Assembly (NCBI GenBank): GCA_963720675.1
Contig: CAVRGH010000007.1
Location: 64,605 to 128,604 of the forward strand
From: an uncultured Acidimicrobiia bacterium
GTDB lineage: Bacteria > Actinomycetota > Acidimicrobiia > IMCC26256 > PALSA-555
Length of the DNA: 64,000 bases
Direction: 5' to 3'
Of the stretch, positions 20,388 to 55,270 are shown in pieces. A program made the translations under genes and the position numbers. Numbering within the stretch: the stretch's first letter is position 1; each line of letters begins with the position of its first letter. Below the pieces are notes generated by a model. The model made no database searches. It was given only the letters and a program-made list of their open reading frames with translations, and was not told the DNA's origin.

Positions 20388-20454
20388 CCCGGCGCCGCGC
20401 CGAAGCGTCGGGATCAGGCAGGTTCGGCGACCTCCCACTACCGTCGCGCGCTCC

Positions 20455-23400
20455 ATGCGCCTCGACCGTCCCCTCGTCCGCCTGCCGCTGCGCGTCGACG
20501 CCGCCCGGCTCGCGGCCGAGCTCTCGGCGATCGACGAGCGAGCGTGGCGCGACCATCCCGAGGGCGCCCCGGGCAACACCGCGCTGCCGCTCGTCGCGGC
20601 CGGGGGCGACCCGGACGACGACGCGACCAAGGGCCCGATGGCGCCGACGCCGCACCTCGCGAGCCTGCCGTACACGCGTCAGGTGCTCGCGGGGCTGCAC
20701 ACGACGATCGGGCGCACCCGCTTCATGCGGATCGCGACCGAGACCGAGCTCCACCGCCACGTCGACACCAACTACTACTGGTGGCATCACCTGCGCGTGC
20801 ACGCGCCGATCGTCACGACACCCGACGTCGTGTTCGATGTCGACGGCGAGACGACGCACATGGCGACCGACGAGGTCTGGGTGTTCGACACCTGGCGCCC
20901 CCACCGGGTCGACAACCCCGCGTCCGCGCCCCGGGTGCACCTCGTGGTCGACACCGTGGGCAGCGCCGAGCTGTGGGACCTCATCGACCGACCCGACCGC
21001 GAACCGCGCACCATCGAGTTCGCGCCCGACGTCACCCCGCTGCTGCCCATCGAGACCGTGAACCACCCCGTGGTGATGGCGGCGGCCGAGATCGACGACA
21101 CGCTCGAGGCACTCCTCGCCGAGATCGCGACGCTCGACCCCGAGGGCACCGAACGGGTACGGGCCGCGCTCACCCCGTTCCGCCACGGCTGGCACGACCT
21201 CTCGGCCCGGTTCGGTGTCGCGGCGCCCGGCTGGACCCACTTCCGAGAGCTGCTGCGACGCGGCGACGCCGCCATGGCCGAAGCCGCCGGCGACCTCGTG
21301 CTGCCGAACAACATCTCGTTCGTCCAGGCCGGCGCGTCAGCTGGTGTTCCTCGTCGCGCTCAACCCCGACCTCGCCGTGGTCGGGGCACCGGCCACCGAG
21401 CCTGCGCCGAGCGCCGCCGGGCCGGCTGCGACCCCGACCGCGCCGGCTCGTCCGGCACGGCCCGATCCCCTCCGCGCCCGCCTCGCCGGCCCACCCCGCA
21501 TCTCCGATCCGGTGTTCGTCGTCTCCTCGCCGCGTTCGGGATCGACCTTCCTGTTCGAGACGCTGGCGCGCACGCCCGAGCTCTACTCCATCGGCGGCGA
21601 GAGCCACACCATCTTCGAGAACATCGCCGCGCTCGCTCCCGCCGCCCACGAGTGGGCGTCCAACCGCCTCGACGCGACCGACGCGACCGAGGGGGTCGTC
21701 GCCCACCTCAAGGACGCGTTCGCCACGCGCCTGCGCGACCGCGAGGGCCGGCGCCCGCCCGGGGGCCCGACCCGCCTCCTCGAGAAGACCCCCAAGAACG
21801 CGTTGCGCGTCCCGTTCCTCGCCGCGGCCTTCCCCGACGCCCGGTTCGTCTACCTCTACCGGGACCCACGCGAGACGATCAGCAGCATGCTCGACGCCTG
21901 GCGCTCGGGCCGCTTCGTCACGTATCCCGATCTCCCGGGCTGGGGTGGCAGCCCCTGGTCCCTCCTCCTCACGCCCGGGTGGCGCGAGCTCGACGGGCTG
22001 CCGCTGGCCGAGGTCGTCGCCGACCAGTGGGCCACGACGACGAACGTGCTGCTCGACGACCTCGAGTGCGCTCGAGCCCGACCGGTGGTGCGTGGCGAGC
22101 TATGACCGACTCGTCGCCGATCCGCGCGCCGAGATCGGGCAGCTGTGCGCGTTCCTCGAGCTCGCCTGGGACGACGACCTCGCCGATCCCCTCCCGAACT
22201 CCCGGCACACACTCGACTCGCCGCACCCCGACAAGTGGCAGCGCAACGCCGACGAGCTCGCGCCGGTCCTCCCCCAGATCGCCGCCACCGCCGAACGCGC
22301 GCGCCAGGTCTTCGCCGATCCACCACGGGTCGCGGCGGTCAAGATCGCGCCGTCGGCCAACCGCGCTCCCAAGAACACGCCGCCGGTGATCCAGGAACCG
22401 GTGGTCCAGGAGCCGGCGATGCACGTGGAGGACGCGAACGCCGGTCTGTCGACCGCGCCGAGCGTCGAAGAGCTGTTCCACTCGAACCACACCGGTTCGT
22501 TCGCCACACTGCTGCGCACGCTCGGGGCGTCGCTGCTCATCACGACCTACCAGGCCGGCCGCGTCATCCTGGTGCGCCACACGGAGGACAGCCTCAACAC
22601 GCACTTCCGCTCCCTCGCCACCCCCATGGGCGTCGCCTATGACGGACGCCGCCTCGCGATCGGCACCAAGTCCGAGATCGCGGTGTTCCAGAACCAGCCG
22701 GAGCTCGGCCGGCGACTCGATCCACCCGGTCGGCACGACGGATGCTTCGTGATCCGGAACCGCCACGCGACCGGCGACATCAGGGTCCACGACCTCGCGT
22801 GGGCCGAGGACGGCCTCTGGATCGTGAACACGCGCTTCTCGTGCCTCGCGACACTCGACGGCGAGCACTCCTTCGTCCCACGCTGGCGACCGCCGTTCGT
22901 CCGCGCGCTCGCACCCGAGGACCGCTGCCACCTGAACGGGCTGGCGGTCGTCGACGGCGTGCCGCGGTTCGCGTCGGTGCTCGGCATCAGCGACGAACCG
23001 AACGGGTGGCGCGAGAACAAGGCGACCGGCGGCGCGATCTTCGACGTCCCGTCGAGCGAGGTGGTGGCCGTCGGACTCTCGATGCCGCACTCACCCCGAT
23101 GGCACGACGACAAGCTCTGGGTGCTGGAGTCCGGGCTGGGCGTGCTCAGCACCGTCGACATCGACACCGGCGAGATCCACCAGGTGGCGCAGGTGCCCGG
23201 CTTCGCCCGCGGGCTCGCCTTCGCGGGCCAGTACGCGCTGATCGGCCTCTCGAAGGTGCGGGAGCACGTGTTCGACGGGCTGCCGCTCACCCGGAACCGC
23301 ACCGAGGATCTCCGTTGCGGCGTGTGGGTCGTCGACACGACCAACGGGGAGACCGTCGGCTACCTCTCCTTCGAAGGGCTCGTCCAGGAGATCTTCGAGG

Positions 23401-23519
23401 TCACACTCCTCCCGAACATGCGCTACCCCGAGCTGGTCGAGCCCGGGGCGGCCCTCGCCGACTCCGCCTACGTGCTCCCGCCCGCCGCGCTGGCCGAGGT
23501 GCCCGCCGCCGGACGCTGA
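20455..23519 (+). pseudogene. three-domain protein (Asp/Asn beta-hydroxylase-like cupin, sulfotransferase, TIGR03032/DUF4915-like); two apparent +1 frame changes (near 21338 and 22067)
   Basis: Frame 1 carries ELHRHVDTNYYWWHHLRVHAPI (AspH/LpxO-type His motif). Frame 2 carries PVFVVSSPRSGSTFLFE plus RLLEKTPKN (sulfotransferase PAPS motifs). Frame 0 carries WCVASYDRLVADP... followed by FHSNHTGSFATLL...HSPRWHDDKLWVLESG, which resembles the TIGR03032 family. No stop codons lie at either junction. Confidence 0.65.
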
Positions 23520-23616: not shown

Positions 23617-25160
23617 ATGAGCTCATTCGACGACGTCGCCACGCCTGCAGGACCCCTGCCGAACCGCGCCGCCCGCCGGGCCGCAGGGCGCCGGGGCCGC
23701 AAGCTGGGCGCACTGGGCTCGGGCGCCGTGCTGGCCACCGGCGCGACCGCCGCGGTGCTCGGCCTCACCGCCGGGCCCGCCGTGGGCGCCGCAACGCTCG
23801 TCGTCGACACCACCGACGACGGTCCGGCGACGCCGGCGGACTGCACGACCCCGGTCGCCGGCTCGTGCTCGCTGCGCGACGCGATCGCCGCCGCCGCGGA
23901 CGGCGACACCGTCGACGCGACGGGTATCAGCGGCATCGATCTCGCTGACCGACGACCAGCTCTACACCTGCAGCAACATCACGATCACCGGTCCGGGCGC
24001 GGCGAACCTCACCGTCGACGCCCATCGATGACTCGCGCGTCCTCTACTCCGACTTCGGCGGCAACGGCACGACCACGATCACCGGCATCACCTTCACGAA
24101 CGGCTACGCGACGGGCGACGGCGGCGCGATGCTCTTCTACTGCGACGGCGGCAGCGGCTCGCTCATCCTGAACGACGTCGCCATGACGAACAGCTACGCC
24201 GAGCTCTACGGCGGCGGCCTCGCGGTGATGGCCTGCGAGGACACGTCGATCTCGGGTTCCACCTTCTCCGGCAACCACTCCGGCTCCGGCGAGGGTGGCG
24301 GCATCGTCTTCTACGACTCCAACGACCTGACGGTCACCACCACGTCGGTCGTCGACAACCACGCCGAGCAGGACGACGGCGGTGGGATCGCCTTCTACGG
24401 CTCCAACAACATGACCGTCCGCAACAGCACGATCGCGAACAACACCGCGGGCGAGTTCGGCGGCGGCCTCTACGTCAACGCCTACGGCGACGTCACTATC
24501 GATCAGTCCACGATCTCAGGGAACCAGGCAACCGACAGCGGCGGCGGGATCGGCGTGAACTACGCCGACGGTGACGTGAACATCGTCCAGACCACGATCT
24601 CGGGCAACACCGCGGGCGACCTCGGCGACGGCCTCTACTTCTACCAAAACCTGGAGAACCAGGGCGCGCAGTCCGCCGAGAAGGCCGACCAGAAGCGAAC
24701 CCGCGTCGGCCACAACAAGGAGGGTGCGCCCCAGGAGGCACCCAAGGCCCACGGTCACGCCGGCGCGCAGGACGTCGGTGGCTCGGCCACGCTGACCGGC
24801 ACCATCGTCTCCGGCAACCCCGGGACGGACATCGACACGAACGGCACCCAGGCCGTCACGTCGGTCGCCTCCCTCATCGGCACGACCGGCGCGGGCATCA
24901 ACCTCACCGACGGCGGCGGCACGGTCACCTCGACCACACCGGGCCTCGGCGCCCTGGCGAACAACGGCGGCCCGACCCAGACCCTCGCGCTGCTCCCGGG
25001 CAGCCCGGCGCTCGACGCCGGCCCCGACCCCGTGCCCAGCTACCCCGACAACGGGTTCGACCAGCGCGGTCCCGGCTACCTCCGGGTCGTCAACGGTCGG
25101 GTCGACATCGGGGCGTACGAGGCGCAGGCCGTCGCGATCGTCCCCCGCTTCACCGGCTGA
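23617..25160 (+). pseudogene. secreted parallel beta-helix repeat protein 1 (CSLRDAI / choice-of-anchor-Q-like) ending VPRFTG; two apparent +1 frame changes (near 23950 and 24029)
   Basis: The signal-like N terminus contains RR (NRAARRAAGRRGRKLGALGSGAVLATGATAAVLGL). It carries a CSLRDAI motif, many N-[ST]-x-x-x-N-x-A-x-x-GGG[IL] repeats and the block ALANNGGPTQTLALLPGSPALDAG. Shifts were placed by alignment to the downstream paralogue (ITITGPGAANLTVDAH). Confidence 0.75.
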
Positions 25161-25232
25161 CCCGGGAGCGTTTCGGGCACCCGCACCGGGCGCCCGAGCT
25201 CCCATTCCGACGACAAAACCCGGTCCGGCGGC

Positions 25233-25238
25233 TAGGTT
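25233..25238 (+). promoter_or_regulatory. putative -10 box TAGGTT, 55 nt before the beta-helix-2 ATG
   Basis: The context is gcTAGGTTctgcGGATCG. ACCCG lies 10 nt upstream, as it does in front of beta-helix 1. Confidence 0.3.
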
Positions 25239-25292
25239 CTGCGGATCGTCCCTGGTGCAGAACCGGGGCAGTCCAGCGGGAGCATTACTGCG

Positions 25293-26834
25293 ATGACCGC
25301 GAGCGACTCCTCGGCCCGCCCGAAGGCCCGACCCCCAACCGTGCCGCCCGGCGCGCGGCCGGACACCGCGGCCGCAAGCTCGGAGCGCTGGGCTCGGGCG
25401 CGGTGCTCGCCAGCAGCGCCACCGCCGCGGTGCTCGCGCTCGGCGCGGGTCCGGCCGTCGGCGCGACCACGCTCGTCGTCGACTCGAACGGCGACGGCGG
25501 TGCCACGCCGGCGAACTGCACGACGCCGGTCGCCGGTGCCTGCACGATCCGCGACGCGCTCGCCGCGGCTGCCGACGGCGACACGATCACCTTCGCGCCC
25601 AGCGTCACCGGCGACATCCAGCTCAACGGCGGCGAGCTCGAGATCGACAGTGCGGTCACCATCACCGGACCGGGCGCCGGCGCGCTGGCGATCCACGCCG
25701 ACACCGGGTCACGAGTCTTCAACGAGAACAACGACTTCTCCTCCGGTGACCTGACGATCAGCGGCCTCACCATCACCGACGGTGACAACGGCAACGGTGG
25801 CGGCGGGATGGAGATCGACTGCTACGGAGACCCCGTCAACGTCGTCCTCGACAGCGTCGTGATCACGGGCAACTCGACCAGCAGCAACGGCGGCGGTTTC
25901 TACATGTACGCCTGCGGCGATCTCACCATCCGCAACTCGACCGTCTCGTACAACTACGCGGAGCGTGGCGGCGGCGGCGTGCGCGTGGAGAACTCGCAGA
26001 ACCTCACGATCGAGAATTCGACGTTCGCTCACAACACCAGCGCCTCGGACGGCGGTGCGCTGTACCTCACCGGCGCCGAAGGTGTCGTGACGATCACGAA
26101 CTCGACCTTCAACAACAACGAGGCGGACGACGGTGCGGGGCTCGAGATCTACGAGAACCAGGACGCCCAGAGCATCACGATCGCGAACTCCACGGTCACC
26201 GGGAACGTCGGGGGCGGTGACGGTGGGGGGCTCTACCTCTACGGGAGCGACGCAGCGATCCTCAGCTCGACGATCGTGGGCAACTCGTCCGACGACAACA
26301 CCGGCGGGGTCCTCGTCACCAGCGCGGACGTGACCGTCACCGCTTCGCTCCTCGGTGGCAACACCGACGTCGGCGGGAGCGGCGCCGCCGCGACCGACAT
26401 CGGCACCGGCATCCGCGAAATGTCGCTCGGAGCGAGCAAGCACACCGGACGGGGCGGTGGCGGGGGCAAGGACAGCGGCCCGGTCGCCAAGGCCGGCGGC
26501 GTCGGCGCCCAAGCCGCCGGCTCCGTCACGATCACGTCCAATGTCATCAACGGCATCGTCGACCCGAACCTCACCACCACCGACGGCGGCGGGAACCACC
26601 TCGGCGTCGCTCCGGGCGTCGGCGCACTCGCGAACAACGGCGGCGCCGACGCAGACCCTGGCGCTCCTGCCCGGCTCGGGCGCGATCGACGCCGCCGGTG
26701 CAGCCGTGCCGAGCTTCCCGGGGAACGACTTCGACCAACGCGGGGCCGGGTACGCCCGCCTCGTCAACGGCGCACTCGACGCCGGTGCGTTCGAGGTCCA
26801 GGCGGTCGCACTGGTTCCCCGCTTCACCGGCTGA
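25293..26834 (+). pseudogene. secreted parallel beta-helix repeat protein 2 ending VPRFTG; apparent -1 change near 25323 and +1 change near 26645
   Basis: ATG 25293 gives MTASDSSARP. The next frame gives GPTPNRAARRAAGHRGRKLGALGSGAVLASSATAAVLAL, collinear with paralogue 1. A long GGG repeat body follows. The tail PTQTLALLPGSGAIDAAG...VQAVALVPRFTG lies in track ORF 26355..26834. Confidence 0.75.
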
Positions 26835-26848
26835 CGCGCGCACACGCC

Positions 26849-27096
26849 ATGGCGTCCGACCCGCGACCCGGACGGCAAGATCGTCCAGCTCGCGGTGTTC
26901 GAGGGCTTCATCGAGGCCGAAGCCGCAGTCGCACAGCTCGACGGCGGCAGGCATCAAGGCCATGCGCGGCGCCGACGACGGGAACTCGCTCCCGAACCTC
27001 GCGTCGTCCGGTGGGTTCCCGGTGCTGGTGTTCGAGGACGACCTCGATGCCGCACGCGCGGTGCTCGCGACGGAAAGCTCAGAGCCCGCTGACTGA
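26849..27096 (+). pseudogene. DUF2007-like small protein; two apparent +1 frame changes (near 26866 and 26943)
   Basis: The segments MASDPR / PDGKIVQLAVFEGFIEAEAAVAQLD / AAGIKAMRGADDGNSLPNLASSGGFPVLVFEDDLDAARAVL read as one DUF2007-type fold only across three frames. The 3' end overlaps convergent ccdA by 18 nt. Confidence 0.5.
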
Positions 27097-27784
27097 GGGC
27101 GTGAACCGGGCGAGGTACGAGGTCAGGTGCCCGTACGTCCCGGTCGCGAGCAGCAGACCGAGGATCACGAGCAGCACGCCCGCAACCCGTTCGATGACGG
27201 GCCCCGCCCGGCGCAGCCAGGACGCGAAGCCCGGGGAACGACGCGAGCCCGAGCGCGGCGAGCAGGAACGGCACCCCGATCCCGAAGGCGTAGGCGAGCA
27301 GCAGCAGCGCCCCCCGCCACGCCTGGCCCTGCTGCGCGGCGACGGTGAGCGCCGCGGCGAGGAGCGGCCCGACGCACGGGCTCCACGCCGCGCCGAACGC
27401 GACGCCGACGACGAACGGGCGCGCCCGCCCCCCGCCCGACGGCAGGCGCTGGACGAGGCGCCGCTCACGTGAGAACGGACCGCGCAGCACACCGAGCAGC
27501 GCGAGCCCCATCACGAAGATGATCACTCCGCCGACCCGCTCGATCACGTCCTGGACGTCGCGCAAGGACGAGCCGACGAACCCCGCGGCCGCGCCGAGCC
27601 CGGCGAACACGGCCGCGAAGCCGAGGATGAAGACGATCGTCGCGGGCACCGCGCGCGCCGGATCGCGCGCGTCCGCCGCCTCGCCGGCGATGATCCCCAG
27701 GTACGCGGGCAAGAGGGGCACGATGCACGGCGCCAGGAACGACGCCACGCCGGCACCGAACAGCGCCAGCAGCTCCGGGAGCAC
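27079..27784 (-). pseudogene. ccdA: cytochrome c biogenesis / thiol-disulfide transporter CcdA family; apparent +1 frame change near 27229
   Basis: It starts at GTG 27784. Both conserved Cys motifs are present (FLAPCIVPLLPAYL, AAWSPCVGPLL). The last two TM helices (FASWLRRAGPVIERVAGVLLVILGLLLATG...) are in the adjacent frame (track ORF 27079..27492). Confidence 0.75.
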
Positions 27785-27793
27785 GGGGAGGCC

Positions 27794-28861
27794 TCAGCCG
27801 CCGAAGGTGAACGCGAACGCCCGGAGATCGGGCGCGCGCGCGGTGAGCGTCACCACGTGCGTCTCGATCCCCGGCGCGAGCACCAGGCGGTACAGGTCGG
27901 ACGCGGTCACGCGCACGAAGGTGCTGCCGTCGGCGTCGACCATCGTGTCGGCCGTCCGGTACTCCGGCGGGAGTGGCGCACCGTCGAGCGCCACCGTCAC
28001 GTCGACGGCCGGAGCGCCCCGCTCGCCCGGTGCCAGCACGAGGTTGACCTCTCGGGCGAAGTACTGGAGATCGATCGCCGCATCCGCGGCGTCGGCTCGC
28101 ACGAATTGGGGCGCCGGAGTCCAGGCGCCGCGCAGCCGCGCCTCACCGCTGCCGCGCTCCTGGCCGAGATAGGTCTCGGGCGAGATCCGCTGGGTCGGCT
28201 CGGGCTCGGTCGCACCGGCGTCCCCAACGTGCGGGGCCGACTTCGGGACCTGGAGCAACGTGCGCACGACGGCCTCGATCTCCTCGTCCCCGCCTTCACC
28301 GATGTGCCCGTAGCGGAGCCGCCCCTTGCGATCCGCCATGAACGACTGCGGCCAGTACTGGGCGCCGAACGCGTTCCAGATGTCCATGTCGTCGTCGAGC
28401 GCGACCGGGTAGTCCACCTTCAGGCGCGCCACGGCGTCGCTGACGTTGCCGTGGTCCCGCTCGAAGTCGAACTCGGGCGAGTGCACGCCCACGACGACGA
28501 GCCCGTCGGGCGCGTACCGGTCGTACAGCGCGCGGAGGTGCGGGAGAGTTCGGACGCAGTTCACACACGAGTACGTCCAGAAGTCGTAGAGGACGACCTT
28601 GCCGCGCAGATCGCTCGGCCGGAGCGGCCCGGAGTTGAGCCAACCCTTGGCGTCGCCGAGATCGGGCGCCGCCGGGCCAACGGGCAGGTGGGCGACGTCG
28701 GCCTTGCCGGCCACCGTCTGCGGATCCGAGCCGCTCGCGAAGACGACGGCCGCGGTGGCGAACACGACCAGCGCGAGGGCGACGACCCCGTACTTCCAGC
28801 GCCCGGACCCCTGGTTCCCGGATGATCCGTTCCCGGCGGCGCGCTCCTCGGCGATCGTCAT
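27794..28861 (-). CDS. membrane-anchored thioredoxin-like protein (DipZ C-terminal-type)
   Basis: ATG 28861 lies inside track ORF 27794..29191. A TM anchor (WKYGVVALALVVFATAAVVFA) is followed by a redoxin fold with CxxC (FWTYSCVNCVRTLPHL) and an extra C-terminal beta-rich domain. It lies 9 nt upstream of ccdA. Confidence 0.8.
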   Translation of the reverse strand: MTIAEERAAGNGSSGNQGSGRWKYGVVALALVVFATAAVVFASGSDPQTVAGKADVAHLPVGPAAPDLGDAKGWLNSGPLRPSDLRGKVVLYDFWTYSCVNCVRTLPHLRALYDRYAPDGLVVVGVHSPEFDFERDHGNVSDAVARLKVDYPVALDDDMDIWNAFGAQYWPQSFMADRKGRLRYGHIGEGGDEEIEAVVRTLLQVPKSAPHVGDAGATEPEPTQRISPETYLGQERGSGEARLRGAWTPAPQFVRADAADAAIDLQYFAREVNLVLAPGERGAPAVDVTVALDGAPLPPEYRTADTMVDADGSTFVRVTASDLYRLVLAPGIETHVVTLTARAPDLRAFAFTFGG

Positions 28862-28985
28862 GCGGGGATGTTCGGTACGACGGGCCGGTCCGGATGGGGC
28901 CAACACCCGATCGCAGGCCGGACCCGACGTCCAGACCCGGCGTCCTGACCCGGAATCCGCCACTGCGGCCGGTACCGTCGATGCG

Positions 28986-30399
28986 ATGCCCCGACCGCGC
29001 TCTGGCTTCGCCATGTTCCGAGGCCGATTCCTGCTCGCGCTCGGGCTGACCTTCAGCATCGTCGTCGTCACGGTCGTCGGGACGAACCTGCTCGTCGAGG
29101 CGAAGCTCGCGTCGGTCGACCGCGTCGATCTGCAGCTCGCACCGACGCCCGACGGCGGCGGCGGCAACTTCCTGCTCGTCGGCTCCGACACCCGGTCGTT
29201 CGTCTCGACCGACTACGACCAGAAGGCGTTCGGCGGCACCGGCGCCGCCGATGGGCAGCGCTCCGACACGATCATGGTCCTCCACGTCGACCCGGACTCG
29301 CAGCGAAGCCTCCTCGTCTCGTTCCCGCGCGACCTGTGGGTCGACGTCCCCGGTCGCGGGAAGTCGAAGATCAACGCCGCGTTCAACGACGGTCCACAGG
29401 CGATCATCGACACGCTGTCGAACGACTTCGGCGTTCCCATCCAGCACTACGTCGAGGTCAACTTCGAGTCGTTCCGCGGCATCGTCGACGCGATCGGCAC
29501 CGTGCCCGTCTACTTCCCGGCTGCCGCGCGCGACACCTTGTCGCTCCTCGACATCCCGTTCCCCGGCTGCAACCAGCTCGACGGCGCCCAAGCGCTCTCG
29601 TTCGTCCGGTCCCGCCACCTCCAGCTGCTCGACCCGGCGACCGGCCGATGGAAGGACGCCGACGCGATCCCCGACATCGGGCGCATCGCCCGCCAGCAGG
29701 CCTTCCTGCGCGAGCTCGGGCGGCAGGCGATGAACGCCGCCGTCTCGAACCCGATCAAGGGCAACCAGGTCATCGACCGAGCGCTGGGTCGGCTCACGCT
29801 CGATCAGGACTTCGGTCGCACCGACGTGTTCGCGCTCGTCGACGCGTTCGCCGCCGACGACGACGCGAGTGGGCCCGAGAGCCTCACCGTGCCGAACACC
29901 CCCGGTACCGAGGGAGGCCAGTCGGTGCTCCTCGTGCAGCAACCGGAGGCCGACGCGCTCATCGCCGAGACTCAAGGACTTCACCACCGTCGTCCCCGAC
30001 GCACCTGCCGCCGCGAGCGACGCGTCGGTCGGTGACACGAAGGTGAAGATCCTCAACGCATCCGGCGCCGACGGCGCGGCGGCGAAGGCACTCACTGCGC
30101 TCACGGACGCCGGCTTCCAGGGCGGCAGCACCGGGAACGCCAACTCCTCGCTGCAGACGACCGAGGTGCGCTACCAGCCGGGTTCGGACGCCGAGGCAGC
30201 ACTGGTCGCGAGCTACCTCAGCGGGCCGGTCAAGCTGGTCGAGGACTCGTCGGTGTCGGGTGCCGACGTCACGGTCGTCCTCGGGCGCGGCTTCGGCGGA
30301 GTCACGACACCATCGACCTCGGCGGCACCGGCCGAGGCCGGCGGCGGACCGACCCTCGCCCAGCCCGGCTCGCTCGCGCCCGTGCCCGGCGACTGCTGA
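28986..30399 (+). pseudogene. LytR-CpsA-Psr (LCP) family protein with LytR_C domain; apparent +1 frame change near 29970
   Basis: ATG 28986 is followed by a TM anchor (FRGRFLLALGLTFSIVVVTVVG). LCP blocks are present (NFLLVGSD, RSDTIMVLHVDP, SFPRDLWV, KINAAF). The C-terminal LytR_C part (VKILNASGADGAAAKA...VTVVLG) is in track ORF 29869..30399. Confidence 0.8.
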
Positions 30400-30464
30400 G
30401 GTGCGGGACCGGTAGCGTCACGCCACGGCGCCCCCGAGCCGGCACCCGACCACGAGGACGACGC

Positions 30465-30882
30465 ATGGCCGACATGAACGACTTCAACGCCCAGATCATC
30501 GACGAGTTCCGCCAGAACGGCGGGAAGCTCGGCGGCGGCTTCGCGGGTGCACCGATGCTCCTGCTCACGACGACCGGCGCGAAGAGCGGCAAGGAGCGGA
30601 CGGCCCCGCTCGCGTACCTGCGCGACGGTGACCGCGCCGTGATCTTCGGTTCCAAGGCCGGGGCCGACACCCACCCCGACTGGTTCCACAACCTGCGGGC
30701 GAACCCCCGCGTGCGGGTCGAACTCGGCACCGAGACCTTCGACGCCGATGCGGTCATCGCGGAACGGCGCGGAGCGCGATCGTCTCTTCGAGCTGCAGAA
30801 GCAGGCCATGCCACCGTTCGCGGAGTACGAGGCGAAGACCGACCGGGTCATCCCGGTGATCGTGCTCGAGCGCGTCGGCTGA
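30465..30882 (+). pseudogene. deazaflavin (F420)-dependent nitroreductase-family protein (Ddn-like); apparent +1 frame change near 30765
   Basis: The body carries NAQIIDEFRQNGGKLGG...TTTGAKSGKERTAPLAY...HPDWFHNLRANP. The conserved end GAERDRLFELQKQAMPPFAEYEAKTDRVIPVIVLERVG-TGA (stop 30880-30882) is in the next frame. Confidence 0.75.
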
Positions 30883-30984
30883 GCCCCGGCGAGCGGCGAT
30901 CTCGCCGGTCCGCCGATCTCGGAACAACCAGTCGGCCACGGTGTTGGACCCTGCGACCCTTTCACCAAGCAGAGAGTCGTCGCC

Positions 30985-31428
30985 ATGCCCAGATACGTCA
31001 CCCGCGTCCGAACCCCATGGGATCCGTCGCGCGCCTTCACCTACATGTCGGACCTCGAGAACTTCGACGAGTGGGACCCGGGCACGAAGCAGGCGACGAG
31101 GGTGCTCGGCAACGCTCCGGGGTTGGGCACCGCGTACGACCTCGTGGTCGAGACCGCGGGGCGCAAGATCACGATGCGTTACGAGACGATCGAGTTCGAC
31201 GCGCCCCGCCGGGTCGTGGCGCAGGCCGAGACGAAGTCCCTCCGCTCGCTCGACATCATCACGGTCGAGGACGGAGAGGACGGCGGCAGCATCGTGACGT
31301 ATGACGCCAACCTCTCGCTGCGGGGGTTGGCAAAGCTCGCCACTCCGCTGCTCGCCCTCGCCTTCGGTCGCATCGGCGATCAGGCCGCCGCGGGGCTGCG
31401 CGAGGCCCTCGAGGGCACGGAAGCCTGA
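30985..31428 (+). CDS. SRPBCC family protein
   Basis: This is an intact 147-aa ORF. The sequence RVRTPWDPSRAFTYMSDLENFDEWDP is typical of the polyketide-cyclase/SRPBCC fold. Confidence 0.7.
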   Translation: MPRYVTRVRTPWDPSRAFTYMSDLENFDEWDPGTKQATRVLGNAPGLGTAYDLVVETAGRKITMRYETIEFDAPRRVVAQAETKSLRSLDIITVEDGEDGGSIVTYDANLSLRGLAKLATPLLALAFGRIGDQAAAGLREALEGTEA

Positions 31429-31451
31429 GCCTCCTCCCCTGCGACCGCTCG

Positions 31452-31823
31452 CTACTCGGTGATCGGACGGGCGAAGCTGAGCTCGTGACCGTCGGGGTCG
31501 CGGACGTGGAAGTAGCGCTCGCCCCACGGCGCGTCCCATGGATCGGTGAGCGGACGGACCCCTGCGGCCACGGCACGCTCGTACATCGCGTCGACGTCGT
31601 CCACGTAGAGGATCACCCGGCCCCAGATGCCCGGCAGCGGCGCGTGCTCGAGATCGAGCTGGAGGTTGAGGTACCCGGTCCCGACCCGGAACGTCGCGAA
31701 CCCCGACTCGATGCTGCCGGAAGCCGGGTCGAAGCCGAGGGCCTCGTAGAACGCCACCGCGGTGGCGAGGTCGGCGGTCGCCAGGGTCACGGCGCTGATC
31801 GACTCGATCGGGCTCCTCTCCAT
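31452..31823 (-). CDS. VOC (glyoxalase/bleomycin-resistance) family protein
   Basis: ATG 31823 lies inside track ORF 31452..31919. The sequence ISAVTLATADLATAVAFYEALGF...FHVRDPDGHELSF is a typical VOC fold. Confidence 0.75.
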   Translation of the reverse strand: MERSPIESISAVTLATADLATAVAFYEALGFDPASGSIESGFATFRVGTGYLNLQLDLEHAPLPGIWGRVILYVDDVDAMYERAVAAGVRPLTDPWDAPWGERYFHVRDPDGHELSFARPITE

Positions 31824-31871
31824 CCGCACCAGCCTGCCACCCGGGTCGGGCACCACCGAGGGTCCATCGCC

Positions 31872-31877
31872 TAGGTT
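31872..31877 (+). promoter_or_regulatory. putative -10 box TAGGTT, 62 nt before the P1 ATG
   Basis: The context is gcCTAGGTTctcc. GGAGGA RBS lies 7 nt before ATG 31939. Confidence 0.3.
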
Positions 31878-31938
31878 CTCCTGCACGCAGTCGGTGGTAG
31901 GGACCGGCTCGTGACCCATCGTGGCGGAGGATCAGGCA

Positions 31939-32914
31939 ATGCGCGTTCGCAGGCTGCTGGCCGTACTGGCCGTGACCACCCTGACCGCCGGCGCTGGCGT
32001 CGTCGCCATGGGCGGCGCCCCCACCGGGGCCGCCGCGACCACCGGTTACACCGTCGTGTGGTCCGACGGTGGATGCCAGCTGTCCACCATCGACCTCGCG
32101 ACGGCTGCCGTCGTCCCGATCGGCGCCACGTCGCAGACCAGCTGCGTGCGCGACCTCGCGGTCTCACCCGAGGGCGTCGTCTACGGGCTCCTCTCCCCGC
32201 TGACCAACGCCACCGAGGTCGACCTCGTGCGCTTCGACACGACGACTGGCGCCGCCACCAACCTGGGCCCGATCACCGGATCGTTCGACACCACGATCGG
32301 CAACAACGGCGGCATCGCCTTCGCGCCGGACGGGACGCTCCTGGCGACCTTCGCCGCCAACGAGTCCGGCTGCGTGCCGTCCGCGAGCGTGTGCCTGTAT
32401 CGGGTCGACCCCGCGACCCTGGTGGCCACGCTGATCGGTCCGGCCGGACAGGCGGACAACCCGTTCTTCTACCTGACGGCCTCGTGCGCGGGCTCGACCC
32501 TGTCGACCGAGTTCGTCGAGCGGGGGTTCACGTCGGAGTCCGACGGAGCGGTCGGGGCGGCGAACGGCTTGTCCAACCAGCAGCTCGCCTCGTGGAACGG
32601 TTCACCGGCGCGGCGACACCGCGGTGCCGCGCTGCCCAGCAACTTCGACGTCGGGGGCCTCGAGTACGACCGGGTGCCCGGCACGCTGTACGCGTTGGGT
32701 CTCGAGCTCGACGGCCAGTCGACCACGAGCCCCGACAGCGCCGAACCCGCAGCTGTTCGCCGGCGCGTCGCTCTACACGGTCGACCCCGCGACGGGCGCG
32801 GTGGCCATCGTCTCCAGCGTCCCGAACACCGAGCTCGTCGTCGACAGCCTGGCGATCCCCGGCACCTGCGCCGCACCGGCAGCCGTCGAGCTCCAGCCCC
32901 GCTTCACCGGCTGA
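31939..32914 (+). pseudogene. secreted Cys-rich D-x-x-T-G repeat protein P1 (DUF4394/beta-propeller-like) ending QPRFTG; apparent +1 frame change near 32749
   Basis: The signal peptide is MRVRRLLAVLAVTTLTAGAGVVAMGGAPTGAAA. Repeats include LVRFDTTTGAATNLGP, LYRVDPATLVATLIGP and LYTVDPATGAVAIVSS. The last 55 aa lie in track ORF 32624..32914. Confidence 0.7.
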
Positions 32915-32975
32915 CGTTCCGGGCTTCTGCTGCCCTGCGAAGGGGCGGGTCGGGCACGTGGACCCGTCGAGCGCC

Positions 32976-32981
32976 TAGGGT
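32976..32981 (+). promoter_or_regulatory. putative -10 box TAGGGT, 54 nt before the P2 ATG
   Basis: The context is ACCCG-N9-cCTAGGGTgtccCGATCG. GGAGGA RBS lies 7 nt before ATG 33035. Confidence 0.3.
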
Positions 32982-33034
32982 GTCCCGATCGTGCGACTGG
33001 CGGTAGGGGCCGGTCCCGGGCGGAGGATCTCTTG

Positions 33035-34025
33035 ATGCGCGTTCGCAAGCTGCTGGCCATGCTGGCCGCCACGACCCTCACTGCCGGTGTCGGTGTCGTC
33101 GCGATGGGGGGAGCGCCGACCGGCGCGGCCGAGACGAGCGGCTACACCATCGTCGCGATCGGCGAAGAGGGCTGTCAGCTCTCCACGATCGACCTCACGA
33201 CCGGCGCGGTGGCGCCGATCGGCGCCACCGCGCAGGACAGCTGCGTGAGCGATCTCGCGGTGGCGCCCGACGCCACGGTCTACGGCTTGGACGGACCCAC
33301 GGCCGTGGCGCTCACCGTGGACCTCATCCGCTTCGACACCACCACGGGTGCCCCCACGAACCTCGGACCACTCACCGGAAGCTTCACCGACTCGTTCGTC
33401 GCAAACGGAGGCATCACCTTCGCGGCCGACGGCACCATGTACGTGCACATGGTCACCGACGAAGCGGGGTGTGACGGCGCCGAGGTCTGCCTGTACCGGG
33501 TCGATCCGGCGACGCGCAACGCCACGCTCGTCGGCCCCTCCACCCAGGTGAAAGCGAGCTTCTTCTACCTGACCGCCGCGTGCAGCGGCACGACCCTCTC
33601 GACGCAGTACCAGGTCGGCGAGAGCTCGGTCGAGCAGAGTGCCCCGTTCGGTGACGGCGTGCAGGCCGCGGACTTCGACCAGCGGCTCACCTCCTGGAAC
33701 ACGACCACCGGCGCATCGACCCCGGGCGCCGACCTCTTCGCCGGCCTCAACGTGACCGGCCTCGAGTTCGACCGGGTCACCGGCACGCTGTACCTGCTCG
33801 CGCGCGAGCGTGCAGCCCCCCCAGGCGGTCCCCGACGAGGCGACGACGGATCCGACGGTCGAACCGCAATACGCGGACGGAGTCTCGCTCTACACCCTCG
33901 ACGCGGCCACCGGGGCGACGACCTTCGTCGCCGACCTGGACTCCGAGCTCGTCGTGGACTCGCTCGGCATCGCCGGAACCTGCGCCGCGCCCGCCGTCGA
34001 GCTCGTCCCGACCTTCACCGGTTGA
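33035..34025 (+). pseudogene. secreted Cys-rich D-x-x-T-G repeat protein P2 ending VPTFTG; apparent +1 frame change near 33809
   Basis: This is a tandem paralogue of P1 (MRVRKLLAMLAATTLTAGVGVVAMGG..., LIRFDTTTGAPTNLGP, LYRVDPATRNATLVGP). The tail VQPPQAV...LYTLDAATGATTFVADL...CAAPAVELVPTFTG lies in track ORF 33810..34025. Confidence 0.7.
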
Positions 34026-45092: not shown

Positions 45093-45905
45093 ATGCAGGC
45101 AGTCTGGGTCTGGGTTCGCTGGACCCGTTGGCACCTCACGCTCCTGATCGTCGCGGTCGCCGCGCTCGTGATCGCGCTCGACGTGATGACGGCCTGGCAG
45201 GACGTGAACCTGGGCCACCTCGGGCGGGTCGGGATGTCCCCGGCGCTGCCGGTCGGCATCGTGCTGGCGTGCATGGTCGGGCTGCGCCGCCTCGGCCTGG
45301 ACCGCGCCAACCTCATGGCGTGGCGGGAGTTCCTCGGCATCGGCGGCGCGGTGCTCATCTACGGGATCTTCCAGTACAGCGAGCACATCGGCGGCTTCCA
45401 GGAGGCCATCGGGCTCGTGCTCGGCGCGCTCGACGAGGAGCTCGTGTACCGGCTCGCGGTGCTGATCGTCGTCGGGGCCGGGTGTGCGGCGCTGCTGGGA
45501 AGGAACTGGCGCAACCCGGAGAACTGGGGGCTCGGGCCCGGACTCATCGCGATGCTCGCGTCGGGCTTCGTGTTCATGCTCCTGCCCGGACACGTCGCGC
45601 AGATGAGCAGCACGACGCGCGCGCTGCCGTTCGTCGCGCTCGGCATCATCCTCGCCTACGCGGTGCTGCGGACGGGCGCGCTGCTCCCGGCGGTCGTCGT
45701 GCACGCGCTCCTGAACCTCGCGACCATCGCCGCGCTCACCGACAACGTCGCGAACGTGTGGCGCGTCCTGTTCGCCGCGATGGTGCTCGTCACGCTCGTG
45801 CTCGCCACCATCGTGGCCGGGGTGCGGCTCGGCATCCTCAAGCGGGTCGAGGTGGAATCGGTCTGGCGTTACCGACCGTATGCGGAGTACAAGTCTGGGC
45901 TGTGA
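45093..45905 (+). CDS. CPBP-family intramembrane glutamic endopeptidase (CAAX protease-like)
   Basis: This 270-aa polytopic ORF carries the CPBP motifs ALDEELVYR and VVVHALLNL. Confidence 0.75.
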   Translation: MQAVWVWVRWTRWHLTLLIVAVAALVIALDVMTAWQDVNLGHLGRVGMSPALPVGIVLACMVGLRRLGLDRANLMAWREFLGIGGAVLIYGIFQYSEHIGGFQEAIGLVLGALDEELVYRLAVLIVVGAGCAALLGRNWRNPENWGLGPGLIAMLASGFVFMLLPGHVAQMSSTTRALPFVALGIILAYAVLRTGALLPAVVVHALLNLATIAALTDNVANVWRVLFAAMVLVTLVLATIVAGVRLGILKRVEVESVWRYRPYAEYKSGL

Positions 45906-50078: not shown

Positions 50079-50843
50079 TCAGGTCCGCAACACGTTTGCG
50101 AAGATCAGCCAGGCGAGCAGGGACTTCGCGGTGAGGCTCAACAGGATGTAGGTGGTCTCACCGGCGACGTAGTCACGCCAACGTCCGACCTGGCGATACT
50201 GCAACACCATGTTCACCGCGAAGCTGAAGAAGAGGACGAGCTCGACGATCGTGATCGCGTAGACGAACCCGGGTGGTGCAGCGGGTCCCGCGAGGAGGTA
50301 GATCGAGATCGCGATCCACGGGACGACCCCAGCGAACGAGCCGAACCAGAACGCGCTCCAGTCGGTGTTCCCCGGCTCCTGCTGCCGTTCCATGAGCAGG
50401 CCGAACAGGATCATCGCGGTGTTCACGCCGAAGATGGCAATCAGCGCGGCGATGTCGCGGATCCCGACGAACATCGCGATGAGCACGATCATGATCGACG
50501 CACTCACGGAGTACTCGATCCACCGTGCGTAGTTGGTGCGCCGGTCGAGGCACGACTCGTACCAACGATGGACGCGCGGTGCGGCGACGACGAGGTGGTC
50601 GATCGCGGCGAGGGCGAGGAAGAGCGCCACGGCCGGGCCGATGGCGATCGTGAAGAGCTCCTCGGCCGGCGCCGCACCCAACGCCTTCACCGGGTCGTTG
50701 CGCAGGTACGAAGCGAAGACCGGCAGCGCGAGTCCGTTGCTGAGCGCCAACATCGCGAGCGCTTCGACGCCCAGGATCGCCCCGACCACCAGGTTGAACA
50801 CGCGGAGCTTTCGGTAGGTCGCGACACGGTCGGTGTCCGGCAT
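50079..50843 (-). CDS. heliorhodopsin
   Basis: ATG 50843 (AGGAGG RBS) lies inside track ORF 50079..50978. The 254-aa 7-TM protein has blocks matching heliorhodopsin 48C12 as I recall it. These include RWIEYSVSASIMIVLIA (counter-ion Glu), FWFGSFAGVVPWI and PGFVYAI...FFSFAVNMVLQY. The block ILLSLTAKSLLAW carries the retinal Schiff-base Lys. Confidence 0.85.
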   Translation of the reverse strand: MPDTDRVATYRKLRVFNLVVGAILGVEALAMLALSNGLALPVFASYLRNDPVKALGAAPAEELFTIAIGPAVALFLALAAIDHLVVAAPRVHRWYESCLDRRTNYARWIEYSVSASIMIVLIAMFVGIRDIAALIAIFGVNTAMILFGLLMERQQEPGNTDWSAFWFGSFAGVVPWIAISIYLLAGPAAPPGFVYAITIVELVLFFSFAVNMVLQYRQVGRWRDYVAGETTYILLSLTAKSLLAWLIFANVLRT

Positions 50844-54292: not shown

Positions 54293-55270
54293 GTGCGGAT
54301 CGCCGCTGCCGCGTTCGCCGCGATCGCGCTCGTCGCGCTGACCGCGGGCGTCGGCCTCGCGGCACCGGGTGACCCCTCGTCCGAGCCGACCGAGCCCCCC
54401 ACCGGCGCGGCGCCGGCTTCCGAGCCGGCTCCGAGCGCCACGGACGTCACGGCGCAGGCCGGCCCGGTGGCGTACACCATCATCTTCAGCGACGGCTGCA
54501 AGCTCGCGACCGTCGGCCTCACCGACGGCGTCGTCACCGCGGTGGGCGCGAACTTCGAGTCGCTCGCGTGCGTCGCCGATCTGACCTTCGGCAACGACGG
54601 CAGCCTCTACGGGATCATCGGTGGCGACCCGCCCCTGCGTGCGCATCTCGTGCGCTTCGACCTCACGACCGGTGCACCGAGCGACCTGGGTCCGATCACC
54701 GGGAGCTTCACCACCAGCCAGACGTTCGGCACGAGCGACGTCGGCATCGCGACCGGGAACGGTGGGCGCATCCTCGTGACGATGGCCACCGACGAGACCC
54801 CCGCGTGCGGGTCGGTGCTGTGTGTCTACGACGTCGACCCGGCATCACTCGCCGGCACCCTCGTCGGGCCGCTCGGCCCGCCGGCGGGCCCGTTCGACGA
54901 CAAGCCGACGCTCACGCTCACCGCCGACTGCGGCACGACCGCGTGGACCGTCGTCTCGCGCAACGAGACCGTGCAACAGCTGTTCCTCACGACGATCAGC
55001 CAGTCGAGCGGCACCGCCGCCGACGGGCCGGAGATCGGGCTGACGTCGGGCGCGAACCCCTACGGCGTCGAGCTCGACCGGGGCACGCGCATCCTCTATC
55101 TCCTCGCCAGCGACGTGCAGAGCCCCGAAGCCCTGTACACGCTGGACCCGGCCAGCGGCGCGACCACGCCGATCGCCCCGATCTCCGGCGACTCGCAGAC
55201 GATCGAGCGCCTCGCGATCCCCGGCTCCTGCCCGGTGGCCATCGCCGCCGAACCCACCTTCACCGGCTGA
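54293..55270 (+). CDS. secreted Cys-rich D-x-x-T-G repeat protein P3 ending EPTFTG (intact)
   Basis: GTG 54293 lies inside track ORF 53981..55270 and gives (M)RIAAAAFAAIALVALTAGVGLAAPG. Repeats include LVRFDLTTGAPSDLGP, VYDVDPASLAGTLVGP and LYTLDPASGATTPIAP. It is a paralogue of P1/P2. Confidence 0.75.
   Translation: MRIAAAAFAAIALVALTAGVGLAAPGDPSSEPTEPPTGAAPASEPAPSATDVTAQAGPVAYTIIFSDGCKLATVGLTDGVVTAVGANFESLACVADLTFGNDGSLYGIIGGDPPLRAHLVRFDLTTGAPSDLGPITGSFTTSQTFGTSDVGIATGNGGRILVTMATDETPACGSVLCVYDVDPASLAGTLVGPLGPPAGPFDDKPTLTLTADCGTTAWTVVSRNETVQQLFLTTISQSSGTAADGPEIGLTSGANPYGVELDRGTRILYLLASDVQSPEALYTLDPASGATTPIAPISGDSQTIERLAIPGSCPVAIAAEPTFTG

Follow-up and report, generated by a model that had tools for sequence, protein, structure and literature searches.

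Five exported proteins encoded in a 64,000-nucleotide stretch of DNA from an uncultured Acidimicrobiia bacterium (contig CAVRGH010000007.1, positions 64,605 to 128,604; hereafter the window) end in a short tail, PxFTG, whose glycine is the last residue before the stop codon. This tail is a putative C-terminal sorting signal so far without a name, and the comparative sequence evidence gives good support to the view that it is a generic, family-independent tag on exported proteins. It is best placed with the C-terminal sorting signals that are paired to a dedicated transpeptidase, as a variant not described before. Genes for tail-bearing proteins are linked to a gene for a divergent YkuD-family L,D-transpeptidase, an enzyme that cross-links the cell wall; the linkage is seen only in genomes of the Thermoleophilia type. 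Taken together, the tail and the linkage point to a mode of protein attachment to the bacterial wall that would be new. Full-text literature searches did not find an FTG-type motif or YkuD-based sorting in Acidimicrobiia or Thermoleophilia, and the tail is not covered by any curated model in NCBIfam.

The PxFTG tail in the window

The five tails were noticed in an initial annotation of the window, and all were confirmed at the claimed stops, which end at 25160, 26834, 32914, 34025 and 55270. Six-frame translation yielded 553 open stretches of at least 60 amino acids, among which FTG followed by a stop occurred five times, only at the reported sites; the chance expectation from the amino acid frequencies was about 0.1. 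All five sites terminate exported proteins, namely two choice-of-anchor Q beta-helices and three six-bladed beta-propellers, and the signal peptides attributed to these proteins were found as signal sequences at each N terminus. The tails had been described as identical, which is incorrect, since they share only the consensus A-V-x-[LI]-x-P-[RT]-F-T-G. Their near-identical codons, also offered as evidence, add nothing because they are predicted by the codon bias that goes with the base composition of the window (71% GC). The nearest relatives of the window are metagenome-assembled genomes of Acidimicrobiia.

No hydrophobic or basic segment is encoded 3' of any of the five stops in any frame, as had been stated, and the DNA following the five genes is not conserved and is mutually unrelated. 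The view that the tail is not an LPXTG, PEP-CTERM or GlyGly-CTERM signal was likewise upheld, as the proline is wrongly spaced for LPXTG and neither a membrane helix nor a basic cluster is present. A repeat at the DNA level and a mobile-element boundary were both considered and discarded, since the sequences 3' of the stops share no relationship and GC bias accounts for the matching codons.

Two of the proteins, BH1 (23617..25160, + strand) and its paralogue BH2 (25293..26834, +), are exported right-handed beta-helices, assigned from the open reading frames (ORFs) and their frames together with the domain matches below. BH1, which contains the CSLRDAI motif, ends in AQAVAIVPRFTG, and BH2 ends in VQAVALVPRFTG. 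The last 12 codons plus TGA occupy 25122..25160 (+) in BH1, and the tail plus TGA occupies 26796..26834 (+) in BH2. Both proteins match Pfam Beta_helix/NosD, and both exceed the curated cutoff of 25 bits for the choice-of-anchor Q model NF041518 (68.4 bits for BH1 and 43.6 bits for BH2), in agreement with the earlier likening of the beta-helix to choice-of-anchor domains. The NF041518 domain ends about 10 residues before the C terminus of each protein, so that only the tail remains beyond it. Homologues of the beta-helix gave 4,940 matches, and 119 of the best 120 end in [FL][TA]G (FTG, 112; LAG, 4; FAG, 2; LTG, 1), the remaining one being truncated. The BH1 homologue P0011, for example, is intact at 506 amino acids with the C terminus IAIVPRFTG. 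The spacer from the end of the domain (DIGAFE) to the C terminus varies from 9 to 41 residues in this family, with 33% proline, and the last five residues are fixed. The signal region of the family, NRAARRAAG…KLGALGSGAVLA (P-N-R-A-A-R-R-A-A-G-x-R-x-R-K-L-G-A-L-G-S-G-A-V-L-A), was also found to be conserved in the window (23617-23800 and 25293-25460) and in loci L203, L205 and L206, to a degree that exceeds the usual level for signal peptides.

The other three proteins are P1 (31939..32914, +), its paralogue P2 (33032..34025, +) and P3 (54293..55270, +), which end in PAAVELQPRFTG, APAVELVPTFTG and PVAIAAEPTFTG, respectively, with the tail plus TGA at 32876..32914, 33987..34025 and 55232..55270 (all +). 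P1 and P2 were assigned from ORFs and frames, and P3 is an intact 325-amino-acid family member identical to P0001. The initial annotation had recognized two folds, of which the beta-helix stood; the second, labeled a Cys-rich D-x-x-T-G repeat, had to be replaced. The AlphaFold2 model of P3 (predicted local distance difference test score, 78.8) is a six-bladed beta-propeller in which tail residues 309-325 are coil, and the top Foldseek matches to it were kelch and TolB propellers. The Pfam thresholds for DUF6923 and DUF4394 were missed, with P2 scoring best (26.0 bits against a cutoff of 27) and P1 and P3 lower. The family has six invariant cysteines, and all nine of the nine database homologues of P3 end in xFTG, down to 31% identity. 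An intact orthologue of P1 (L002, 2530-3504) ends in AAVEIVPTFTG, and one of P2 (P0006, 87-90% identity) ends in APAIELVPTFTG. In P3 a cysteine, C313 (about 55229-55231), stands just before the spacer. Such a cysteine, 10 to 25 residues from the C terminus, is frequent in tail bearers of several families (L031, L038, L055, L081, L105 and the DUF7507 proteins), where it may form a domain-closing disulfide.

Only P3 is intact in the window assembly; the other four tail genes are broken by at least six ±1 frameshifts, located near 23932 and 24025 in BH1, near 25310-25340 and 26645 in BH2, near 32740 in P1 and, within a C7 run, near 33820 in P2. The assembly is rich in indels (23617-34025, 27218 and 29969-29971), and genes without the tail are split as well (LCP, CcdA and 20443-23501). 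Because intact orthologues exist (P0006, P0011 and L002) and unrelated genes of the window are also split, the frameshifts were deduced to be assembly indels rather than gene decay. The public record annotates a truncated ORF of 343 amino acids (P0010).

Tail anatomy and distribution

The tail was defined from 131 homologues, in which the terminal glycine is invariant (131/131) and the conservation of the other main positions is 125/131 for T(-1), 126/131 for F(-2) and 111/131 for P(-4). The resulting logo is [VIL](-8) V(-7) [IVL](-6) x P(-4) [TRKAN](-3) F(-2) T(-1) G(0), with a free carboxylate; serine also occurs at -3 in the general form of the tag. Lysine occurs in the tail only at -3 (28/131). 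Every one of the 128 tail-carrying homologues of the propeller and beta-helix families terminates at the glycine, with no hydrophobic or basic segment after it. The bearers have a common build, consisting of a folded domain that is often closed by a cysteine, a Pro/Ala/Thr-rich spacer of variable length and then the motif. The residues before the proline are hydrophobic and strand-like in Acidimicrobiia tails and basic in tails adjacent to the transpeptidase. None of the bearers gave an NCBIfam match to a CTERM model. Stop-codon recoding was rejected since TGA, TAG and TAA are all found after tails.

A family-blind scan was made with a degenerate DNA pattern encoding h-x-P-x-F-T-G-TGA across 185,579 genomes, one per GTDB species, and yielded at least 120 loci; the fractions that follow refer to the matches listed. 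At least 67 of these carry the label Acidimicrobiia, Thermoleophilia or unresolved Actinomycetota. In 46 of the 67 the match terminates a long, coding-like ORF with high GC at third codon positions, and a signal peptide was present in most of those ORFs whose N terminus falls inside the locus. Several of the scanned loci contain two to three tail genes, some of which the DNA pattern had not caught. The matches in other phyla were mostly short or out of frame, and those in Streptomyces mostly belonged to a few conserved, apparently cytosolic families, e.g., a LuxR C terminus. In Streptomyces, two conserved families of membrane-anchored proteins have the C termini …LAPAFTG and …MEPVFTG (L016, L019 and L024; L027 and L073); these may be genuine tails beyond the two main classes or may match by chance.

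The initial annotation had allowed that the tail might be confined to the five paralogous genes, that it might not be enriched in secreted proteins or that corrected ORFs might run past the TGA into a conventional anchor. Instead, beyond the propellers and beta-helices the tail was found on about 20 further unrelated secreted families, hosted by Acidimicrobiia and Thermoleophilia; its bearers carry N-terminal Sec or Tat signals, and their ORFs stop at the glycine in hundreds of independent assemblies. Pfam analysis of 20 bearers returned a beta-lactamase fold, GH5 cellulase, lipase, Vgb_lyase/NHL/PD40 propellers, a TED thioester domain with DUF5979, SpaA_4 with DUF11, DUF7507, Glug, DUF4397 and Gly-rich proteins, and Ferritin_2 and Ice_binding proteins were found to carry the tail as well. 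On a contig that shares synteny with the region of P3, a third bearer, unrelated to the beta-helices and propellers, is a secreted Gly-rich protein with the C terminus AVPSIIRFTG. Several of the domains are of stalk or adhesin type. DUF11 ("CLIPPER") and SpaA-type domains form isopeptide-bonded adhesin stalks, which elsewhere are paired with LPXTG or other anchors (PMC12617251).

A YkuD L,D-transpeptidase is encoded beside tail genes in Thermoleophilia-type genomes

All ORFs around tail genes were clustered, and the sole recurrent neighbor outside housekeeping functions was a YkuD L,D-transpeptidase, whose gene lies directly 3' of DUF7507/DUF11 tail proteins in nine Solirubrobacterales loci. 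The initial annotation had left the partner enzyme to be identified, and this transpeptidase is now the candidate. ClpC and acyl-CoA dehydrogenase neighbors were also considered as partners and were rejected as housekeeping synteny.

The linkage was tested a second time with 80 independent metagenome loci that were retrieved by the transpeptidase alone, 66 of them with upstream DNA. Use of the enzyme as the sole query removes the dependence on the DUF7507/DUF11 protein family. A terminal [FYL][TA]G is encoded by the co-oriented gene 5' of the transpeptidase in 24 of these 66 loci, compared with 7 of 586 background ORF-like stretches, an enrichment of about 30-fold next to this transpeptidase subfamily. 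The same was observed for complete ORFs only (4/13 upstream of the transpeptidase versus 1/256 in the background; p = 1.6e-5) and for signal-peptide-like ORFs only (3/9 versus 1/91; p = 0.002). Seven further loci have variant tails (PRFIG, PRFVG, PRYIG, PKATG, PRVTG and PTTTG), and in others the tail genes are convergent or downstream. The proteins encoded 5' of the transpeptidase represent six or more unrelated families, comprising DUF7507/DUF11, Tat-exported Ferritin_2, Ice_binding with Big_7, SpaA_2 with DUF4397, small basic membrane-anchored proteins and unknowns.

The arrangement is also present in a cultured isolate, Patulibacter defluvii DM4, in which a signal-peptide protein of 637 amino acids ends in RCRPIVVTPKFTG (VVTPKFTG) and the transpeptidase gene starts 17 nucleotides further on. 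In this isolate (L204, 10001-19022) a span of 20 kb contains three YkuD genes, each with a PucR-like regulator (GGDEF_2 and HTH_30) in its vicinity, and the first alone follows a tail-bearing gene.

The assignment of the linked enzyme to the YkuD family is supported by the following data. It matches Pfam PF03734 (YkuD) with 72.6 to 76.3 bits against a cutoff of 23.4, it contains the catalytic motif SHGC[IV]R, and H215, C231 and the residues surrounding them are invariant in 44 sequences. Its AlphaFold2 model matches Bacillus subtilis YkuD (1y7m) with E = 1.3e-8. The catalytic domain is preceded by an extra all-beta domain (residues 45-124), and a subfamily-specific loop, TLSDWPGGG, is modeled at low confidence. 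The enzyme is distant from all solved transpeptidases, the best match again being B. subtilis YkuD (E = 1.7e-7), and NCBIfam holds no specific model for it.

Proposed mechanism

The interpretation to which we give roughly an even chance is that PxFTG is an envelope sorting tag without a membrane segment, borne by Sec- or Tat-exported proteins, and that a YkuD enzyme couples these proteins to peptidoglycan. After export, the tag would be recognized through its terminal L-Thr–Gly-COOH, which would imitate the terminus of the tetrapeptide stem in peptidoglycan, where an L-centre is followed by D-Ala-COOH. It is at the carbonyl of this L-centre that L,D-transpeptidases attack. By analogy, the catalytic cysteine of the dedicated, divergent YkuD-family enzyme would attack the threonine carbonyl, a thioester would form, and a single glycine would leave. 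The transpeptidase would then pass the protein to a peptidoglycan amine, so that an enzyme of another family would perform a reaction like that of sortase. The build of the tag, its breadth, its confinement to exported proteins and its tight gene linkage to this transpeptidase subfamily are shown by the sequences, whereas action of the enzyme on the tail, cleavage of the T–G bond and the link to peptidoglycan are inferred.

Mimicry of the D-Ala end is proposed because glycine is the only ribosomal residue able to fill a D-amino-acid site. The release of glycine through a thioester is proposed because three features need explaining, namely the invariant terminal glycine with its free carboxylate, the small residue (T/A) that precedes the glycine and the strict confinement of the motif to the very end of the protein. 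Precedents exist in that YkuD enzymes swap D-Ala4 for glycine and that the YkuD paralogue DpaA specifically cleaves the L-centre–Gly-COOH bond (PMC8263019). The initial annotation had proposed covalent attachment through the terminal glycine; attachment is retained here, and the threonine carbonyl, after loss of that glycine, is the more likely point of linkage. The larger claim, that PxFTG-COOH is a ribosomal mimic of the stem end and that YkuD enzymes use exported proteins as acyl donors in a new anchoring chemistry serving dozens of families in Acidimicrobiia and Thermoleophilia, is tentative and is considered possible rather than probable.

Several observations weigh against coupling by the YkuD enzyme. 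Gene adjacency alone is not proof that the tail is a substrate, and the phenylalanine at -2 and the proline at -4 have no counterpart in the peptidoglycan stem. To our knowledge, wherever proteins are tethered by known transpeptidases, the protein serves as the amine acceptor (the lysine of Lpp or the N termini of outer membrane proteins) and never as the acyl donor. The contrast between basic residues before the proline in transpeptidase-adjacent tails and hydrophobic ones in Acidimicrobiia tails may mean that the two lineages use the motif differently. Furthermore, a motif scan and three long contigs, together covering about 300 kb, revealed no YkuD gene in the window or near the tail genes of loci labeled Acidimicrobiia or unresolved, and among the best 120 homologues of the linked transpeptidase, those with names are all from Solirubrobacteraceae or Patulibacter. 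Since no YkuD gene lies near the Acidimicrobiia tails examined and the named homologues are all from Thermoleophilia, the action of the same enzyme in the lineage of the window is an extrapolation.

Alternative explanations

The tail could instead be an uncleaved tag for noncovalent retention, its glycine carboxylate and a short beta-strand being bound by a wall- or membrane-anchored receptor through strand addition or by recognition of the carboxylate. That receptor might be the adjacent transpeptidase, via its N-terminal beta domain, or the enzyme might be unrelated. We regard such docking as unlikely. It would be consistent with the alternating hydrophobic residues before the proline in Acidimicrobiia tails, with exposure of the tail beyond a flexible spacer, with the extra all-beta domain of the transpeptidase and with the finding that no enzyme is linked in the Acidimicrobiia loci examined. 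However, tails next to the transpeptidase retain only P-x-F-T-G without the hydrophobic strand, and an absolutely invariant terminal glycine preceded by T/A is more readily explained by a scissile bond than by an epitope for binding. Receptors for free C termini also usually prefer a hydrophobic last residue, which argues against docking. Trimming of the carboxypeptidase type, serving activation, turnover or release and with no attachment, was judged improbable. Candidates for it are a YkuD L,D-carboxypeptidase, given that purely hydrolyzing YkuD paralogues for L-centre–Gly bonds exist (DpaA; PMC8263019), and the Rce1-like/CPBP intramembrane protease encoded in the window (45132-45863, +), whose family clips CAAX motifs at the extreme C terminus. 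It is difficult to see what benefit trimming would have for some 20 unrelated families, and many of the bearers are adhesin-stalk proteins in need of anchoring. The tail also occupies the exact anchor position of choice-of-anchor Q homologues, and the loci used in the neighbor clustering contained no CPBP homologue close to any further tail gene.

A degenerate sortase signal, in which a sortase would cut T–G as in LPXTG and the membrane segment would be dispensed with, was deemed very improbable. The conserved T–G, the occasional alanine in place of threonine and the upstream proline are reminiscent of such a signal, as are the typical sortase-substrate domains (TED, SpaA and DUF11) among the bearers. 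Against this, the proline is at -4 instead of -3, phenylalanine takes the place of the free x, nothing hydrophobic or basic follows the tail, and the linked enzyme is a YkuD protein. The sortase active-site motif TLxTC was not found in any ORF of the window or of the approximately 200 fetched loci, to which that search was limited. Finally, the absence of any tag function, with the tail being either the last strand of a shuffled shared module or a truncated-ORF artefact of a poor assembly, is effectively refuted. The window assembly is indeed rich in indels, and its five genes form only two paralogous groups. Yet some 20 unrelated folds carry the tail, which is present in hundreds of independent assemblies and in one cultured isolate; it is always at the extreme C terminus, after a variable low-complexity spacer, and is modeled as coil. 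The use of all three stop codons and the roughly 30-fold enrichment beside one enzyme subfamily also speak against this explanation.

Comparison with known systems

PxFTG resembles the LPXTG/sortase system of Gram-positive bacteria in being a C-terminal signal on exported surface proteins with the same kinds of adhesin-stalk domains, and in a motif that closes with T–G and has a proline upstream. The likeness would extend to the proposed chemistry, in which a cysteine transpeptidase cuts T–G and hands the protein to a peptidoglycan amine. It differs in lacking the hydrophobic segment and basic tail, so that the leaving group would be one glycine, in having proline at -4 and phenylalanine at -2 where LPXTG has proline at -3, and in the YkuD fold of the linked enzyme.

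YkuD-family enzymes act in the tethering of Lpp by LdtA-C in Escherichia coli and of OutB in Dickeya (PMC12274547), where the signal, like PxFTG, is very short, lies at the extreme C terminus, has no membrane segment and is associated with such enzymes. The outcome there is a covalent bond between protein and peptidoglycan, as is proposed for PxFTG. The terminal lysine side chain of Lpp is an amine acceptor, whereas PxFTG always ends in glycine and the protein would be the acyl donor. Moreover, those systems serve one or two proteins in Proteobacteria, compared with dozens of PxFTG families in presumably monoderm Actinomycetota. DpaA/LdtF, a YkuD-family amidase and meso-Dpm–Gly carboxypeptidase (PMC8263019), shares the fold and the specificity for an L-centre–Gly-COOH terminus, but it acts on peptidoglycan stems and Lpp–peptidoglycan bonds rather than on a protein C terminus, and by hydrolysis rather than transfer.

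The systems PEP-CTERM/exosortase, GlyGly-CTERM/rhombosortase and MYXO-CTERM/myxosortase are likewise family-independent, lineage-restricted C-terminal tags on unrelated exported proteins; they have a dedicated processing enzyme, and they are alternative partners of choice-of-anchor domains. Those signals are tripartite (motif, membrane helix and basic cluster) and are processed within the membrane, whereas PxFTG stops at the motif. With the CAAX box and Rce1 it has in common the position at the extreme C terminus and would share a very short leaving peptide, but CAAX proteins are cytosolic, depend on prenylation and need the cysteine, whereas PxFTG proteins are extracytoplasmic and the motif has none.

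Water and soil are rich in Acidimicrobiia and Thermoleophilia, most of which are uncultured and whose envelopes are almost unstudied. The pattern P.[FYL][TAIV]G at the C terminus combined with a signal peptide would pick out their surface proteome, including glycoside hydrolases, lipases and adhesins. The sorting function, if true, would account for what fills the place of the anchor in thousands of choice-of-anchor Q proteins from the two classes. If the proposed chemistry is also true, L,D-transpeptidases would gain a second major role in general protein anchoring, the catalogue of sorting signals would be extended by one whose leaving group is a single residue, and the five-residue tag with its enzyme would become a possible protein-ligation tool beside sortase and butelase.

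Other genes in the window

Directly 5' of the beta-helix tail gene, both in the window and in L205, is a gene fusing an Asp/Arg beta-hydroxylase, a sulfotransferase and DUF4915. It is a single gene encoding 1096 amino acids in L205 (1556-4846) and is split into three frames in the window (20443-23501, +). The two adjoining beta-helices are only 46% identical, and the fusion product may act on the neighboring beta-helix protein as a modifier.

Between the beta-helix and propeller genes (26954-30399) are CcdA (DsbD_TM) and a thioredoxin-like/Redoxin protein (26954-28816), followed by LCP (LytR_cpsA_psr plus LytR_C; about 29028-30294). This context of envelope thiol-redox functions and a wall-polymer ligase fits the Cys-rich exported neighbors; it is kept in L002 and does not recur elsewhere. 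A glucosaminidase gene adjoining P3 (55521-56525) is conserved in L001. CcdA with the thioredoxin-like protein, LCP, the glucosaminidase and the CPBP protease were all considered as partners of the tail and rejected, as none recurs near tail genes elsewhere. The window further encodes a heliorhodopsin on the minus strand (50088-50843), identified by its match to Pfam PF18761 (E = 1.5e-90).

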